Source: a virus. Taken from it: a stretch of 35,090 nt of DNA. Position numbers and translations under genes: made by a program. A model generated the notes under the pieces. That model worked only from the letters and a program-made list of their open reading frames with translations, searched no databases and had not been told where the DNA came from. Within the stretch, counting starts at the first letter, position 1. Each line of letters opens with the position of its first letter. Positions 2,015 through 35,090 of this stretch are shown here, piece by piece. The stretch spans positions 1-35,090 of IMG/VR virus record IMGVR_UViG_3300001528_000176; one strand, written 5' to 3'.

Positions 2015-3157
2015 GTGATCTGCAAGAACAAGGGTTGTAGACGGGAGATAGATTGCGACAGCGTCTACTGCAAGTGGTGCGGCACCCGGCAGGTGCGGGA
2101 AAAGCGTACCAAGAGCGACGCGCCCACAGCGCGGCAGCTGCCCAGCGGGTCATGGACGTGCCGCGTCCGCGTGGATGGGCGGGATGTCTCCGTCACCCGC
2201 CCATCCAAAGCCGAGGCGCAGGCTGAGGCTATGGCCGTCAAGCACGGCCTCAAAGCCCCAGACACACCCCGCGTCACCATGACGCTGGAGGCTGCCTACA
2301 AAGCCTATATCGAGTCCCGCGATGGCGTTCTGTCTCCCTCCACCGTGGCGGGGTATAAACGCCTCCAGCGCAACACCTTTCAGCGACTCATGCCGATGCA
2401 GCTCTCATCCATCACCTCCGAGCACATTCAGCGGGAGATCTCCGCCATGACAAAGAACAAAAAAAGCCCAAAATACATCGCCAACGCAGAGGGCCTTCTT
2501 TCCTCTGTCCTAAAACAAACCATGCCGGACAAGCACTACTCTCTGCATCTCCCAGCTAAGCGCAAGCCCGACCTTCGACAACCAGACGACAAAGAGATTG
2601 GAGCTATCCTGACCGCCTTCCGCGGCAGCCCTATCGAGCTGCCAGTGCTCATGGCCCTTTGGATGGGTATGCGGATGTCGGAGATCCTCGGCGCACGGCA
2701 CGAAGATATTGACGGCGGAAAACTGCACATCTGCCGGGCGGTCGTCCTGGACGAAAATAACCAGCCCGCGGAGAAGGACAGCGCCAAGACCTATGCTGGA
2801 GACAGGTGGGTCAGCGTCCCCGGCTACATTGCCCAGCTCATCGCGGCCACCGGGCGCGACAGCGGGCCGCTGGTGACTTTCTCCGGGGCAGCTATTTATA
2901 AGCGGTTCGTCCGCACGCTGGATCAGGCAGGCATCCCCCGCTGCCGCTTCCACGACCTCCGGCACATTAACGCCGCCGTCATGGTGCGCCTGGGCGTGGA
3001 CTCGATATATGCCCAGGCGCGAAACGGCTGGGCCTCCGATCGGATGTACAAGCAGGTCTACGCCTATGCCATGTCAGATGAAATGGCCGCGATCAACGAG
3101 AACATAGACGGCTATTTTGGCAACAAAATGACAACGGAAAATCAAAAAAGCACGTAA
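2015..3157 (+). CDS. int: Tyrosine recombinase (phage integrase) with N-terminal zinc ribbon
   Basis: The GTG start follows AAAGGGGTGG. The N-terminus has CKNKGC...CKWCG. The C-terminal catalytic region reads ...MRMSEILGARHEDI..., CRFHDLRHINAAV and ...KQVYAY. An attP-like tRNA 3' end lies downstream. Confidence 0.9.
   Translation: MICKNKGCRREIDCDSVYCKWCGTRQVREKRTKSDAPTARQLPSGSWTCRVRVDGRDVSVTRPSKAEAQAEAMAVKHGLKAPDTPRVTMTLEAAYKAYIESRDGVLSPSTVAGYKRLQRNTFQRLMPMQLSSITSEHIQREISAMTKNKKSPKYIANAEGLLSSVLKQTMPDKHYSLHLPAKRKPDLRQPDDKEIGAILTAFRGSPIELPVLMALWMGMRMSEILGARHEDIDGGKLHICRAVVLDENNQPAEKDSAKTYAGDRWVSVPGYIAQLIAATGRDSGPLVTFSGAAIYKRFVRTLDQAGIPRCRFHDLRHINAAVMVRLGVDSIYAQARNGWASDRMYKQVYAYAMSDEMAAINENIDGYFGNKMTTENQKST
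3121..3141 (+). repeat. Direct repeat CAACAAAATGACAACGGAAAA (left of att core); candidate arm-type site
   Basis: It matches 3352-3372 (CAACGAAATGACAACGAAAAC) with one mismatch and one indel. It overlaps the 3' end of int. Confidence 0.35.
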
Positions 3158-32181: not shown

Positions 32182-32930
32182 CCGAATGTCACCTCCTCAC
32201 CGCCATCAGCGGGCGCAGCATCCAACTCGTCCGCGTCATGCCAGCGCTCCCCGTTCAGCCAGGTGGCCACGTGAGGGATGCCGATGTCCCGCTGCCACTC
32301 CTCCGTGGCCTTCAGTTTCGCCAGCGACCGCGCCATGGTGTCGATCAGCGTGTCATCGGGCTGCAGCTTGTCCCATGCCGCGATAGCCCTCTGCTTGTTC
32401 TTCCGCCCCTTCCTGGGGTAGTAGTCCCACAGCCCCGCGAACCGCTCCGGCTTCCAGTCCGGTGCGTCCTTGTGCACACTCTTTTGCACACGCTTTCCCC
32501 CATGGGGGGTAAGGGGGGTATGTTCTACTGTATTGTTCCCTTTATATTGTAGGGGGGTAATCATTTTTGCGGACACCCCCCTTACATTTTTGCGGAGAGG
32601 GGTGTCCGCAATTTTGCTGACACCCCCTGTGCAAATTCCGGCGAAAATGCGCCGCTCGCTGCCTCCGCTGGTGGGCACCATCTCCACCGTCAGGTACCCG
32701 GCATCCCGCAGGCTGCTGATGAGCCGCGTCACGGTCGTGGGCGCCCAGCCGTAGAGCTCCGCGAAGTAATCGTTCTTCGCCCAGCAGAAGCCTTTCCGGT
32801 CACACAGCGCGCTGATCTCACCGAACAGCAGCTTGGCGTTCGCCGGGATCCGGTCGTCATAGCGCACCGGCGCGGGGATCACTGCCCAGTATCCGGGCGA
32901 TTCAGTTTTTTTTGCCAAATTTCCTCTCAC
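32169..32930 (-). CDS. Replisome organizer / replication initiator (N-terminal wHTH, C-terminal DnaD-like phage domain)
   Basis: The N-terminal region reads ...IPANAKLLFGEISALCDRKGFCWAKNDYFAELYGWAPTTVTRLISSLRDAGYL.... The C-terminal region reads ...LWDYYPRKGRKNKQRAIAAWDKL.... The start is uncertain (GTG at 32930 or TTG at 32918). Confidence 0.75.
   Translation of the reverse strand: MRGNLAKKTESPGYWAVIPAPVRYDDRIPANAKLLFGEISALCDRKGFCWAKNDYFAELYGWAPTTVTRLISSLRDAGYLTVEMVPTSGGSERRIFAGICTGGVSKIADTPLRKNVRGVSAKMITPLQYKGNNTVEHTPLTPHGGKRVQKSVHKDAPDWKPERFAGLWDYYPRKGRKNKQRAIAAWDKLQPDDTLIDTMARSLAKLKATEEWQRDIGIPHVATWLNGERWHDADELDAAPADGGEEVTFGWQT
32471..32640. repeat. Iteron/inverted-repeat cluster inside the organizer gene: candidate origin of replication
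   Basis: TTTTGCGGACACCCCCC (32565-32581) and TTTTGCTGACACCCCC (32612-32627) are direct repeats. TTGCGGACACCCC (32567-32579) is inverted against GGGGTGTCCGCAA (32599-32611). GGGGGGTAA occurs three times and TGTGCACA once. Confidence 0.6.
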
Positions 32931-32933
32931 CCC

Positions 32934-32961
32934 TTGCGAACGTCAAATTTTCTGGTATACT
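32934..32961 (+). promoter_or_regulatory. Plus-strand promoter with extended -10 (TTGCGA-16 nt-TGgTATACT)
   Basis: The -35 element is at 32934-32939 and the -10 at 32956-32961, preceded by TGG. It points opposite to every surrounding gene. Confidence 0.6.
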
Positions 32962-32964
32962 GGA

Positions 32965-33040
32965 ATTGTTCTCACGAGGTTAGCGCCTCGTACCTTCGCA
33001 GGAACGCTTCCGATTCGCACTCGGAGGCGTTCTTTTTTTG
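32965..33040 (+). ncRNA. Candidate ~75-nt antisense sRNA (OOP-like / countertranscript / type I antitoxin)
   Basis: It is bounded by the 32934-32961 promoter and the 33002-33039 terminator. It has a 5' hairpin ACGAGG-TTAGCG-CCTCGT at 32974-32991. No ORF is present. The 5' end is approximate. Confidence 0.5.
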
Positions 33041-33126
33041 CGTCCGCAGCCGTCCACCAGCCGGACGACCGCCGCCGCGCCGGCAGCCGCACAAGCGTAC
33101 TGCACGACCATGACCCATAGCTCCAT
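32980..33126 (-). CDS. Small hydrophobic/basic peptide, 48 aa (MELWVMVVQYACAAAGAAAVVRLVDGCGRKKRTPPSANRKRSCEGTRR)
   Basis: A strong SD GAGGAGGTG lies 7 nt upstream of the ATG at 33126. The ORF track hides it inside a longer spurious ORF. Its 3' half is complementary to the candidate sRNA. Confidence 0.45.
   Translation of the reverse strand: MELWVMVVQYACAAAGAAAVVRLVDGCGRKKRTPPSANRKRSCEGTRR
33002..33039 (+). terminator. Plus-strand rho-independent terminator (11-bp stem + T7)
   Basis: The structure is GAACGCTTCCG-ATTCGCACT-CGGAGGCGTTC followed by TTTTTTT. In minus sense no U-run follows the stem. Confidence 0.65.
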
Positions 33127-33140
33127 GACCTCACCTCCTC

Positions 33141-33389
33141 TCAGCACGCCTTCGCCCACAGCGCGAACAGCTCCTCCTTGGGGATGCGTGTCACGCGGGC
33201 GATGGCCGCGATCTCCTTGCCCGAGCAGCTGGGCAGATCCTTGATTCGGGCGTAGATCGTACTCCGGCTCATGCCCGCCGCCTTCGCCGCCCCGTCCAGG
33301 CCGCCGTGGATGGCGTAGGCCTGTGACCTGATGCGGATAGCCATATCCTTCGCCGCGTCCGTCTTGGCGCTCAGCTTCGTCCTCGGCAT
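33141..33389 (-). CDS. Small HTH DNA-binding protein (82 aa)
   Basis: The HTH-like segment is ...AAKAAGMSRSTIYARIKD.... The SD is GGAGGAGGTG. Confidence 0.6.
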   Translation of the reverse strand: MPRTKLSAKTDAAKDMAIRIRSQAYAIHGGLDGAAKAAGMSRSTIYARIKDLPSCSGKEIAAIARVTRIPKEELFALWAKAC

Positions 33390-33391
33390 AC

Positions 33392-33838
33392 CTACACCTC
33401 CTCCGCGTACTGCAGCGCCAGCGCTGCCTGTACAATGTCGCCCAGCTCCCCGGCGATCTCGTCGAAGAGCGCCCGCTCACTGTCGCTGATGACCCCGTCC
33501 TCGGCGATCTCCAGCAGCTGGTCACTCCGGTGCGCCTCGGCGAAGGCCAGCACCCGCCGCACCAGCTTGATGGTGGCCACCGGCAGCGGCTCCGGCCGTG
33601 CGTATTGCACGCACTCCGGCAGCAGCGCCGACTTGAGCTGCAGGTGCTGCAAGCCCAGATACTGGACGTTGTACACCGCGCACATCCGCGCCACGATGTC
33701 GTCACCCGGCAGCCGCTCCCCGGACTCGTAGGCCCGTATGCTGGTGTCGCTGACGGCCAGCCGCTCCGCCGCGGCCTCCTGCGTCAGCCCCGCCGCTTTC
33801 CGGGCAGTCTGATAGATGTTTCCGCCGTCCTTCGGCAT
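33392..33838 (-). CDS. XRE-family HTH regulator with C-terminal helical domain (148 aa)
   Basis: The HTH reads ARKAAGLTQEAAAERLAVSDTSIRAYESGERLP. The ATG at 33838 has optimal spacing from AAAGGAGG. Confidence 0.7.
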   Translation of the reverse strand: MPKDGGNIYQTARKAAGLTQEAAAERLAVSDTSIRAYESGERLPGDDIVARMCAVYNVQYLGLQHLQLKSALLPECVQYARPEPLPVATIKLVRRVLAFAEAHRSDQLLEIAEDGVISDSERALFDEIAGELGDIVQAALALQYAEEV

Positions 33839-33866
33839 GGACATTTCCTCCTTTCTTCCGTATGCT

Positions 33867-34052
33867 TTAGCTGGCAGCGTTGGCCAGCAGCTCCGCCTCG
33901 GTGCAGCCCAGCAGCTCGCACAGCTTCCGCCGGTACTTCCGCAGCGGCACGTTGCCGGTAAGCTCCCACTTGGTCACCGTGGATCTGTCCACGTCCAGCC
34001 GGTCGGCCACCTGTGCCTGCGTCAGGCCGCGGCGCTCCCGCAGCTCCTTCAT
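33867..34052 (-). CDS. Cro-like XRE HTH regulator (61 aa), first gene of the lytic transcript
   Basis: The sequence reads MKELRERRGLTQAQVADRLDVDRSTVTKWELTGNVP. It lies downstream of the 34198-34226 promoter. The exact start (ATG at 34052 or GTG at 34058) is uncertain. Confidence 0.7.
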   Translation of the reverse strand: MKELRERRGLTQAQVADRLDVDRSTVTKWELTGNVPLRKYRRKLCELLGCTEAELLANAAS

Positions 34053-34083
34053 CGACACGCAAATCACATCCTTTCTTGTTTTT

Positions 34084-34097
34084 CTGTGAAAATTCAC
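34084..34097. promoter_or_regulatory. CTGTGAAAATTCAC motif (palindromic core GTGAA-AA-TTCAC), copy 1
   Basis: It is identical to 34984-34997. It abuts the -35 of the plus-strand promoter and lies in the leader of the Cro-like gene. Confidence 0.5.
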
Positions 34098-34098
34098 C

Positions 34099-34127
34099 TT
34101 GCACGGCGTAGGAAAGGGTGGTATGAT
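34099..34127 (+). promoter_or_regulatory. Lysogenic-direction promoter (TTGCAC-17 nt-TGgTATGAT)
   Basis: The -35 element is at 34099-34104 and the extended -10 at 34122-34127. It points at the XRE gene at 34287. Confidence 0.6.
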
Positions 34128-34197
34128 AGTCATGTCAGGAACCACATACGCACCCTTTCGCGGGCTCACCTTTCGGTGTCGGCCTCGCTATGGTTGC

Positions 34198-34226
34198 ATA
34201 TTATCACGGTGTACCGTGATTGTCAA
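34198..34226 (-). promoter_or_regulatory. Lytic-direction promoter (TTGACA-17 nt-TAATAT)
   Basis: The minus-sense sequence reads TTGACA (34221-34226), spacer ATCACGGTACACCGTGA, then TAATAT (34198-34203). The spacer is itself an operator palindrome. Confidence 0.7.
34203..34220. promoter_or_regulatory. Operator O1: ATCACGG-TGTA-CCGTGAT
   Basis: It has perfect 7-bp inverted arms and fills the spacer of the lytic promoter. Confidence 0.65.
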
Positions 34227-34230
34227 CACC

Positions 34231-34252
34231 AAATCACTGTTGCCAGTGATTT
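34231..34252. promoter_or_regulatory. Operator O2: AAATCACTG-TTGC-CAGTGATTT
   Basis: It has perfect 9-bp inverted arms and shares the ATCAC/GTGAT half-site with O1. It lies just outside the lytic -35. Confidence 0.65.
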
Positions 34253-34286
34253 TTGGCGTAATGCACGAAAATGTCGGAGACTAATT

Positions 34287-34514
34287 ATGTACGATCCACA
34301 AAATACCGCGTTCCGCATCAAGAAGCGGACAAAGGAACTCAAAGTCCCTATGCGGACGCTTTTGCATGACTGCGGCCTTGGCATCAACGCCGTTTCTCAG
34401 CTTGCAAACGGCAGCGTCATGTCGTACATCTCCCTCGCTCTGATCGCCGACCGCCTGGACTGCTCCGTGGACTACCTGCTGGGGCGGACGGAGAACCCCG
34501 CCGTTAACCGGTGA
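34287..34514 (+). CDS. XRE-family HTH regulator (75 aa), CI-like repressor candidate
   Basis: A GGAGA SD lies 6 nt upstream of the ATG. The sequence reads ...MRTLLHDCGLGINAVSQLANGS... and ...LDCSVDYLLGRTENP. The ORF track embeds it in a longer spurious ORF. Confidence 0.75.
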   Translation: MYDPQNTAFRIKKRTKELKVPMRTLLHDCGLGINAVSQLANGSVMSYISLALIADRLDCSVDYLLGRTENPAVNR

Positions 34515-34529
34515 GCGCAGGAAGACGCC

Positions 34530-34943
34530 ATGAAGAACAACGATCAAATCACCGCCTGCGACGCCGAAGTCCTGGAATACTTCCGGAAGCATAGCCCCGC
34601 GTCAGCTTCAGACGCTGAAAAGGCGCTCCCGGATACAGGCGCTGTCGAGCATCGCATTGCCGCATTGACCAAGCCCGATGTCGGGCTTCTGGCCGAAGAC
34701 GTGGATACTGACCTCTCGGGCACACGAGAACTCCACAGAGGCCTCGGCACCTACCGCATCACGCCCAAGGGCGAGATCGCGCTGAGCGACTACCTTGCGG
34801 AGCGAAAGCAGCACCGAAAAGAGCTTTTACTGAAAAGCGCGTGGATGCCCATTCTCGTGTCTATCGCAGCAAATATAGCAATAGACGGAATACGACAGTT
34901 GTGGCCGCTGATACAGCAATGGTTACTCCATACTCTCGCATGA
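34530..34943 (+). CDS. C-terminally membrane-anchored protein (137 aa), co-transcribed with the repressor; exclusion/immunity candidate
   Basis: The soluble N-terminal part looks helical and wHTH-like (VLEYFRKHSPASASDAEKAL). The C-terminal TM segment is AWMPILVSIAANIAIDGI. Confidence 0.6.
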   Translation: MKNNDQITACDAEVLEYFRKHSPASASDAEKALPDTGAVEHRIAALTKPDVGLLAEDVDTDLSGTRELHRGLGTYRITPKGEIALSDYLAERKQHRKELLLKSAWMPILVSIAANIAIDGIRQLWPLIQQWLLHTLA

Positions 34944-34962
34944 ACTCCCGCCATCGTCGCAT
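34861..34962 (-). CDS. Small basic/hydrophobic peptide, 33 aa (MRRWREFMREYGVTIAVSAATTVVFRLLLYLLR)
   Basis: A strong intergenic SD GGGAGGTG lies 5 nt upstream of the ATG at 34962. The ORF is convergent with, and overlaps, the 3' end of 34530-34943. It lies downstream of the 132-160 promoter across the circular junction. Confidence 0.35.
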   Translation of the reverse strand: MRRWREFMREYGVTIAVSAATTVVFRLLLYLLR

Positions 34963-34983
34963 TTTCTCACCTCCCGCATCAAA

Positions 34984-34997
34984 CTGTGAAAATTCAC
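34984..34997. promoter_or_regulatory. CTGTGAAAATTCAC motif, copy 2
   Basis: It is identical to 34084-34097. In minus sense it lies about 8 nt upstream of the SD of the 33-aa ORF. Confidence 0.45.
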
Positions 34998-35015
34998 TGC
35001 TTCCCCCGGCAAAAC

Positions 35016-35090
35016 GGGCGGCGCAATTACGGTGAAGACGTTGTAACTGCATCCGCCCGTTTCCCGCTCTGACACAAGCACTAAAGGGGG
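35016..35090. repeat. 75-bp terminal direct repeat, copy 2 (identical to 1-75)
   Basis: The two copies were compared directly. Confidence 0.95.

Follow-up and report, generated by a model that had tools for sequence, protein, structure and literature searches.

The stretch of DNA analysed here, IMG/VR virus record IMGVR_UViG_3300001528_000176 (35,090 nucleotides (nt), hereafter the window), is the 35-kb genome of a temperate phage, with ~60% G+C and nearly all of its genes on the minus strand. On the strand opposite the replication initiator gene rep, and directly upstream of it, the window carries a compact promoter–hairpin–terminator unit. We interpret this unit, with moderate confidence, as a real, constitutively promoted gene for a cis-encoded antisense small RNA (sRNA) of ~72 nt, which would hold down the replication module or set the timing of its expression, in the manner of the pO promoter and OOP RNA of phage lambda. 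The original prediction for this DNA had set an antisense sRNA gene, complete in itself, between the replication genes and a small hydrophobic open reading frame (ORF), and this core proposal has gained strong support, all of it comparative.

The unit is composed of an extended −10 promoter, a 5′ hairpin and a rho-independent terminator (Table 1). The promoter and the 5′ hairpin were found as first described. The terminator had been given an 11-base-pair (bp) stem and seven T residues; the T-run stands, and the stem is corrected to a 12-bp core (GAACGCUUCCGA/UCGGAGGCGUUC), or 14 bp when two closing pairs are included. The predicted RNA, close to the ~75 nt first proposed and likewise without an ORF on inspection of its sequence, folds with an energy of −31.3 kcal/mol, compared with −17.9 ± 2.6 kcal/mol for dinucleotide shuffles (z = −5.2; 0 of 200). 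The promoter hexamers alone are weak, a 9-of-12 match, and four promoter-like sites occur in 3.6 kb where 1.0 would be expected; an extended −10 promoter followed by a strong terminator is found only once in the 35-kb window, on either strand. The plus strand, described at the outset as otherwise empty, is not wholly so, as it carries the genes for the integrase and a cI-like repressor.

The predicted sRNA shows complementarity at positions 32980–33039 to the end of an ORF of 48 amino acids (aa), namely its final 19 codons and stop codon, and it also covers the first 13 nt of the 61-nt spacer between this ORF and rep. The promoter fills most of the remaining spacer. The proposed complementarity to the last ~20 codons of the small ORF and to the leader of the rep-dnaB messenger RNA (mRNA) is therefore borne out. 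The promoter appears to lie outside the reach of the phage repressor: the operator-like palindromes of the cI/cro region have no copy near 32934–32970, for which reason repressor control was rejected, and a Cheo-type LexA box (GAAC-N4-GTTC) was not seen by eye at the promoter. A promoter with no overlapping operator palindrome is consistent with constitutive expression.

We compared the window with 64 related loci, comprising two GenBank faecal phage contigs, 49 IMG/VR contigs and 13 genome contigs, the last two sets gathered through the Rep protein. The loci stem from numerous independent samples of human and mouse origin; where a host is named, it is Oscillibacter, Flavonifractor or another member of the Oscillospiraceae. 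The whole element can be aligned to the window in 11 loci (group A), all of which keep the −35 TTG, the TG and the TATACT unchanged, with variation in the spacer and in the bases following the −10 element. A further 12 loci (group B) are homologous to the window only across the N-terminal part of the small ORF, and have the same layout in different sequence: a promoter of the form TTGnnn-17-TGGTATAAT, a 5′ hairpin GAAGCGC/GCGCUUC, and a terminator GAACCGCUUUCUGG/CCAGAGGGCGGUUC followed by seven to nine T residues. The −35 TTG is invariant throughout groups A and B, as is TGnTATA(C/A)T (24 of 24 sequences), and the other lineages have TGnTAnnnT. In groups C–F and in the phage Cormatin, the sense-strand CAA is followed directly by GGAGG or GGGG, so that the promoter contacts the Shine–Dalgarno (SD) sequence. 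The unit is found opposite and directly upstream of rep even where the Rep proteins are only 32–47% identical and the intergenic DNA cannot be aligned.

The positional linkage is strict. A detector that requires an extended −10 promoter and then, within ~100 nt, a hairpin of at least 12 kcal/mol with a T-run was applied to 877 kb of strand-sequence, counting both strands, and returned 50 units. Of these, 47 are antisense units placed immediately upstream of either rep or its preceding small ORF; the remaining three are on the antisense strand ~1.2 kb further upstream, and the sense strand has none. Inspection by eye identified the unit in seven loci that the detector had missed (L004–L006, L018, L038, L040 and L060), giving a total of ~54 of 62 evaluable loci. 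The three outlying units (L042, 1504–1606; L054, 1792–1894; L057, 1609–1725) are on the strand opposite rep and 1.1–1.4 kb upstream of it, and may be further antisense sRNAs of the early or regulatory region. Locus L054 has no unit at rep itself.

A shorter version is carried by Cormatin, a cultured, inducible prophage of the OMM12 strain Flavonifractor plautii YL31 (PMC10197239). Its unit (L066, accession ON453905, positions 2396–2483 on the minus strand of the locus) reads TTGTGC...TGCTATAAT, followed by a 15-nt tail, a single 14-bp terminator hairpin and seven T residues. On one side it adjoins the rep ribosome-binding site, and on the other it reaches into the 3′ end of the coding sequence upstream.

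Both hairpins covary. In an alignment of 18 sequences from groups A, B and D, 99.1% of the stem cells are paired, compared with 84% in shuffles and 28–51% when the partners are slid out of register. Compensatory double changes are present at 9 of 18 pairs, and the covariation score is 0.54 versus 0.26 (0 of 500 shuffles). A model-fitted alignment of 30 sequences gives compensatory changes at 12 of 18 pairs and a score of 0.72 versus 0.24. Considered separately, the 5′ hairpin has compensatory changes at three of its six modelled pairs with 98% of cells paired (18 sequences), rising to five of six in the larger set, and the terminator has them at 6–7 of 12 pairs with 99.4–99.5% of cells paired across the two alignments. 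The slid-register control together with the double changes would be hard to explain other than by conserved RNA structure.

Pairing and folding both favour the sRNA strand as the carrier of the structure. At two positions of the terminator stem, 12–17 sequences have U·G wobbles, whose equivalent on the sense strand would be A·C mismatches. Across 39 distinct units from all lineages, G·U pairs make up 131 of 851 pairs on the sRNA strand versus 25 of 737 on the sense strand, and the sRNA strand folds better in 34 of the 39 (−32.5 versus −26.1 kcal/mol). Only on the antisense strand is the hairpin followed by a T-run. These asymmetries, together with a −35 and an extended −10 element that are invariant at a fixed upstream distance in every lineage amid unrelated surroundings, make it highly improbable that the unit is not an RNA gene at all and that its inverted repeats are DNA-level or sense-mRNA elements (a binding site for Rep or a regulator, part of the origin, an mRNA stabiliser or a processing hairpin) next to a fortuitous promoter match. 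Such elements would accommodate the hairpins of the complementary strand, which fold too (mean −26 kcal/mol), the weakness of the hexamers taken alone and the expectation that an origin and initiator-binding sites lie nearby.

A covariance model, R1, was built from groups A, B and D only. It matches the window over its full length at 32967–33039 with 66.9 bits, its sole match there, and recovers groups C and E at the exact coordinates of their units, again in full length (E = 1e-6 to 6e-4). What the lineages share is shape and place: no single-stranded segment is conserved between them, and tail, loops and spacer all change. Sequence would be free to drift in this way, with position and shape retained, because the RNA is expected to act on its own complement. 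The turnover of sequence at a fixed position and the lack of a conserved single-stranded seed thus support a role in cis rather than in trans. A moron-like sRNA that merely occupies this intergenic slot and acts on mRNAs of the host or of distant phages should show the opposite, a conserved seed, and would leave the rep-junction linkage in ~50 loci unexplained. We regard such an RNA as very unlikely, even though the unit is self-contained from promoter to terminator and apparently outside the repressor operators, has an unpaired 5′ tail and spacer, and would join documented examples of phage-encoded trans-acting sRNAs (PMC12197685).

Two side observations concern the unit and its flanks. The Rep protein of locus L003 is 95% identical to that of the window, and this locus has the hairpin type and the small-ORF start (GTG, MGDWAM...) of other subgroups; the comparison of L003 (~2810–3031) with the window (32900–33140) indicates recombination breakpoints around the sRNA unit and mosaic exchange of sRNA types. 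In addition, a run of eight A residues on the sense strand, within 32900–32918 and corresponding to codons 3 and 4 of rep (Lys-Lys), gives the sRNA promoter a T-rich stretch from about −40 to −55. The tract is kept in groups A and B, the corresponding segment of group C is T-rich, and it could double as an UP element.

The gene overlapped by the sRNA in the window was present as first described, with an SD sequence, a hydrophobic N-terminus and a basic tail; in the list of ORFs it is hidden inside a longer mechanical ORF. It begins 14 nt after the preceding gene, within the early operon. Groups A, B and D all retain the ORF, and its 28-codon core has synonymous (pS) and nonsynonymous (pN) proportions of 0.41 and 0.11 (pN/pS 0.28), which identifies it, on comparative grounds, as a real gene under purifying selection. 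The family core of ~28 aa has the pattern M-x-x-W, a transmembrane stretch and R-L-[IV]-D-[WG]-x-x-R; genes of this family occur in linkage with rep. The peptide has no match in Pfam, toxin families included, or in PHROG, and a search of 5.8 billion proteins returned 21 clusters, none of them named. The tail rich in Arg and Lys is not a family feature. Oscillibacter relatives end after ~28 residues, two insertions or deletions (5 nt and 1 nt) put the tail into different frames in different subgroups of group A, and the tail of the window peptide is the terminator read backwards, with AAAAAAA giving KK and the 5′ stem arm giving RKRS. In the Oscillibacter prophages the stop codon of the peptide overlaps the rep SD, which suggests translational coupling of the peptide to rep in those phages.

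An ORF of this kind invites comparison with type I toxin–antitoxin systems, in which a membrane toxin (here the 48-aa peptide) and a 3′-overlapping RNA antitoxin would stabilise the prophage, and such a pair was among the three functional readings offered at the start. The SD, hydrophobic N-terminus and basic tail are features of prophage type I toxins, and in txpA/RatA, bsrG/SR4 and C. difficile CD0977.1/RCd11 a convergent sRNA likewise covers the 3′ end of a small hydrophobic prophage ORF with a basic tail (PMC7699646). The overlap recurs in groups A, B and D, and the purifying selection on the ORF would also fit. The comparative data nevertheless disfavour this arrangement, which we judge improbable. 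Nineteen loci (group C, group F, L038, L041, L043, L053, L064 and Cormatin) keep the unit at the rep junction and have no peptide gene within ~3 kb. In L039 and L055–L060 the peptide gene is located on the rep side of the sRNA promoter and is not overlapped by the sRNA, so that the overlap is missing from a large Oscillibacter lineage. The basic tail is present in the window peptide and missing from the 28-aa relatives, there is no homology to known toxins, and the ORF lies within the early operon as one of its inner cistrons and has no promoter-like site of its own: a consensus scan of the minus strand from 34198 to the ORF identified none. The peptide-less loci and the lack of overlap in group E and L039 therefore tie the sRNA to the start of the replication module and not to the peptide.

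A second reading likened the unit to the countertranscript RNAs (ctRNAs) of plasmids, which control rep by attenuation (pT181, pIP501) or by blocking translation (pMV158 RNAII) and would here set an extrachromosomal copy number. Part of this comparison stands. The sRNA runs antisense to the rep leader and is predicted to be constitutive, like pT181 RNAI, pIP501 RNAIII, pMV158 RNAII and the ctRNA families of Rfam; its promoter adjoins the rep ribosome-binding site in most lineages; and its shape, two hairpins or a single-stranded 5′ tail with one hairpin, resembles theirs (compare PMC4485353). The sRNA diversifies between close relatives of Rep, as in L003, much as incompatibility determinants do, and ParA-like and ParB-like genes after dnaB leave a plasmid stage open. 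Rfam had no match at its gathering score across the whole window, and a permissive threshold produced ctRNA matches on the terminator hairpin only (ctRNA_p42d, 28 bits; ctRNA_pGA1, 16.9 bits), both falling far short of their gathering scores (50 and 45).

The attenuator and the ribosome-site overlap of a plasmid control circuit are missing, and we consider it unlikely that the unit is one. A sense attenuator or a bidirectional terminator was rejected, because no T-run follows the minus-strand hairpin and in the window and its relatives alike no hairpin plus T-run resembling a terminator separates the target from the rep ribosome-binding site; a scan of the minus strand over 31500–35090 returned zero terminator-like sites. 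The rep SD and start codon are not covered by the sRNA, whose 5′ end at ~32967 lies ~33 nt upstream of the SD. Pairing of a trans-like kind with the rep ribosome-binding site was also considered: a match of 6–8 nt was seen by eye in two groups, and was rejected when cognate pairs scored −24.0 kcal/mol, compared with −25.4 for non-cognate and −26.2 for shuffled ones. Finally, the phage has a tyrosine integrase and structural genes, relatives reside inside chromosomal contigs of 280–860 kb, and none of 72,556 PLSDB plasmids gave a DNA match. The lack of a plasmid match spoke against a phage-plasmid.

The third functional reading, the geometry of lambda OOP, fits best of the three, and the layouts agree point by point. 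The scan used on the window, when applied to lambda, recovers pO (TTGAGT-17-TGtCATAAT) and the terminator tO, whose 12-bp stem lies within the 3′-terminal part of cII, and the oop RNA of 77 nt is predicted to form two hairpins (z = −4.1). In both phages a short untranslated RNA (77 nt in lambda, ~72 nt predicted here) consists of a 5′ stem-loop and an intrinsic terminator, is driven by an extended −10 promoter located at the start of the initiator gene and convergent with the early operon, and ends with its terminator embedded in the 3′ end of the upstream cistron. In both, the unit lies downstream of a cro/cI-type switch, the initiator gene contains iterons (lambda O) or iteron-like repeats (rep), and a helicase-recruiting or helicase gene follows. 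The two differ in detail. The lambda −10 element is 2–3 nt from the O ATG (PMC3985674; also recovered by our scan) and pO overlaps the start of O, whereas the window promoter lies wholly upstream of the rep SD. The overlapped gene encodes a 48-aa membrane peptide and not cII, with an overlap that ranges by lineage from 60 nt to a few codons, and the helix-turn-helix (HTH) genes further upstream in the window (33141–33844) are not reached by the sRNA. The host belongs to a Gram-positive-type Clostridia lineage with different RNases, and the window unit, unlike OOP, is known from its sequence.

The window RNA is best read as a functional analogue, and not a detectable homologue, of lambda pO/OOP. 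By layout it is OOP-like; it is not a member of the OOP family, because it has no homology to oop, Rep has none to O and the overlapped gene is not cII, and it is not an Rfam ctRNA. The terminator arms of the window sRNA (33002–33039) and of lambda tO (L065, 598–630) are alike, GAACGCU...GGCGUU(C)UUUUUU, and both RNAs start with UGUU. With no other similarity and no model match, this likeness is most likely a coincidence. A further positional parallel is found in B. subtilis, where an antisense RNA over the 5′ untranslated region of dnaA has been reported to regulate production of the initiator (PMC12112137). That RNA also overlaps the leader of a replication initiator in a Firmicute, but it is chromosomal and not phage-borne, is unrelated to the window RNA, and is likened to it by position, not by length or architecture. 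The kind of element proposed here, a cis-antisense sRNA that guards the replication genes of a mobile element, is thus already known, and what would be new is the host phylum and the RNA family. The limited open-access literature consulted contains no description of the window RNA or of OOP-like RNAs in phages of Gram-positive bacteria, which is weak evidence of novelty.

Published work ascribes three roles to pO/OOP: antisense control that depends on RNase III (PMC12197685), a dampening of transcription from pR that tunes replication initiation (PMC3985674), and a CI-independent silencing of replication exerted together with the iterons (PMC3349717). By analogy, the window sRNA would be transcribed head-on against the early (cro-side) operon and would end at its own terminator before reaching the regulator genes. 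It would form a perfect duplex of ~72 bp with the polycistronic early transcript, running from the 3′ part of the small cistron into the distal rep leader. Cleavage of this duplex by a double-strand-specific RNase such as RNase III could uncouple and destabilise the flanking cistrons, with less Rep and DnaB and less product of the upstream cistron as the result. Polymerases leaving the sRNA promoter, whose −35 element touches the rep ribosome-binding site, may in addition collide with or block those coming from the early promoter. The expected net effect is that expression of the replication module is damped or timed, with possible silencing of leaky or superinfecting copies in a lysogen.

A more ambitious version, which we put forward tentatively and think rather unlikely, joins the sRNA, the 28-aa peptide and Rep with its internal origin into a conserved replication-licensing module, in which the fast-diverging sRNA would serve as a plasmid-like incompatibility determinant. 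The constitutive sRNA of a resident prophage would then silence the replication module of an incoming or leaky phage with the same type of sRNA, independently of a CI-type repressor. If so, the module would be a counterpart of the ‘inhibition phenotype’ of lambda oop plus iterons, and RNAs of the OOP type would be a general, independently maintained part of internal-origin initiator modules across phyla.

Several points weigh against the damping or timing sRNA gene that we favour. The case rests entirely on sequence and comparison. The 30-sequence alignment leans toward the structure used for its fitting, and the related sequences are not independent, so that the shuffle statistics overstate significance and are not probabilities. 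Seven or eight rep homologues have no unit, and neither do three sampled phages with a homologous Rep: Lactococcus phage phi31.1 has a gap of 227 nt before its rep homologue and no unit in it, and Lactobacillus phage J-1 and Erysipelothrix phage SE-1 have no gap at that point. The overlapped gene varies by lineage, being the small membrane peptide, an 81-aa soluble protein or none; in group C, the overlap is limited to the last few codons of the unrelated 81-aa protein. The duplex would end ~33 nt upstream of the rep SD, so that a direct block of translation is not predicted, and any effect on rep would depend on the RNase or interference steps. The likeness to lambda does not extend to homology, which was rejected: R1 has no match in the lambda region, Rep and O give a BLASTP E value of 4.7, and the overlapped upstream gene is no cII homologue.

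If the RNA is transcribed as predicted, it represents an unannotated family, with no match in Rfam, in dozens of temperate phages and prophages of Oscillospiraceae, carried by Oscillibacter, Flavonifractor and uncultured relatives. Oscillospiraceae are abundant gut bacteria, and to our knowledge phage regulation in them is essentially unstudied. An arrangement familiar from lambda, in which a short antisense RNA is launched at the threshold of the initiator gene and runs counter to the early operon, appears to recur in a distant phylum with no detectable homology, which argues that it is functionally important and no mere peculiarity of lambdoid phages. What pO/OOP does physiologically in lambda has been ambiguous for decades, and the Oscillospiraceae phages would offer an independent and tractable second system in which to address it; Cormatin, inducible and carried by F. 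plautii in the OMM12 community, is an experimentally accessible carrier of a one-hairpin version. In these phages the unit also serves well to mark where the replication module begins. For annotation it calls for caution, in that the basic tail of a small ORF can be shaped by an overlapping terminator.

Table 1. Positions of the sRNA unit, its neighbours in the window and related units and peptide genes in other loci
Feature	Position	Strand	Remarks
−35 element TTGCGA	32934–32939	+	Complement directly adjoins the rep SD; 16 nt from the rep start codon
Extended −10 element TGgTATACT	32953–32961	+	TG at 32953–54; TATACT at 32956–32961; spacer of 16 nt, ending in TG
Predicted sRNA, ~72 nt	~32967–33039	+	Start placed 6–8 nt past the −10 element
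5′ hairpin	32974–32991	+	7 bp, 4-nt loop
Rho-independent terminator	stem 33000–33034; T7 33033–33039	+	7-nt loop
Small membrane-protein gene, 48 aa	32980..33126	−	MELWVMVVQYACAAAGAAAVVRLVDGCGRKKRTPPSANRKRSCEGTRR
SD of the small ORF, GGAGGTGAGG	33130..33139	−	Spaced 3 nt from the ATG; immediately follows the stop codon of the 82-aa HTH gene; conserved in alignments
Tyrosine integrase	2015–3157	+	
cI-like repressor	34290–34514	+	Divergent from the early operon
cro-like HTH gene	34169..33867	−	Early operon
XRE regulator, 150 aa	33844..33392	−	Early operon
HTH protein, 82 aa	33389..33141	−	Stop codon 33141–33143
Replication initiator rep	32169..32918	−	Start TTG 32918; SD ~32924–32933; PHROG 270, E = 2.4e-37; Pfam HTH_36
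DnaB	32181..30766	−	Next after rep
ParA-like (PHROG 164) and ParB-like (PHROG 27290/4715) genes	28219–30730		Early operon on the minus strand, after dnaB
Unit, group C	L024–L033		Antisense, upstream of rep
Unit, group D	L034–L036		Antisense, upstream of rep
Unit, group E	Oscillibacter prophages L053, L055–L060; also L039		Antisense, upstream of rep
Unit, group F	L040, L042, L061		Antisense, upstream of rep
Unit, single loci	L038, L041, L043, L064		Antisense, upstream of rep
Peptide gene, L034	~2620–2760		
Peptide gene, L039	~2505–2625		
Peptide gene, L055–L060			Just upstream of rep

The surrounding genome is that of an integrating temperate siphophage of Oscillospiraceae, with endolysin and holin genes in addition to the integrase, and the sRNA unit sits where its regulatory genes meet the replication module. 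The gene rep is the first of a rep-dnaB-parA-parB block. Its start is placed at the TTG because this codon aligns with an ATG in L007 and L008, and the Rep protein also has a weak match to an ‘O-like’ PHROG (E = 2.8e-7). Cormatin shares the ParA-like gene with the window phage, which also has the integrase; the ParA-like and ParB-like genes may serve partition of an episomal form or some other role. The sole promoter-like site of the early operon, TTGACA-17-TAATAT, lies in the cI/cro intergenic region at 34226..34198; this cro-side promoter is flanked by the operator-like palindromes ATCACGGTGTACCGTGAT (34203–34220) and AATCACTGTTGCCAGTGATT (34232–34251).

The interior of rep contains iteron-like repeats (32551–32627), in which a 12-nt sequence is directly repeated three times at a spacing of 23–24 nt. 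Two copies read CATTTTTGCGGA (at 32562 and 32585) and the third reads CAATTTTGCTGA (at 32609). A 13-nt inverted repeat (GGGGTGTCCGCAA/TTGCTGACACCCC) lies beside them, with G6 and C6 tracts as flanks. The repeats fall within the low-complexity linker that joins the N-terminal winged-helix domain of Rep to its C-terminal domain, and the origin of replication is probably located here, within the initiator gene, as it is in lambda O.

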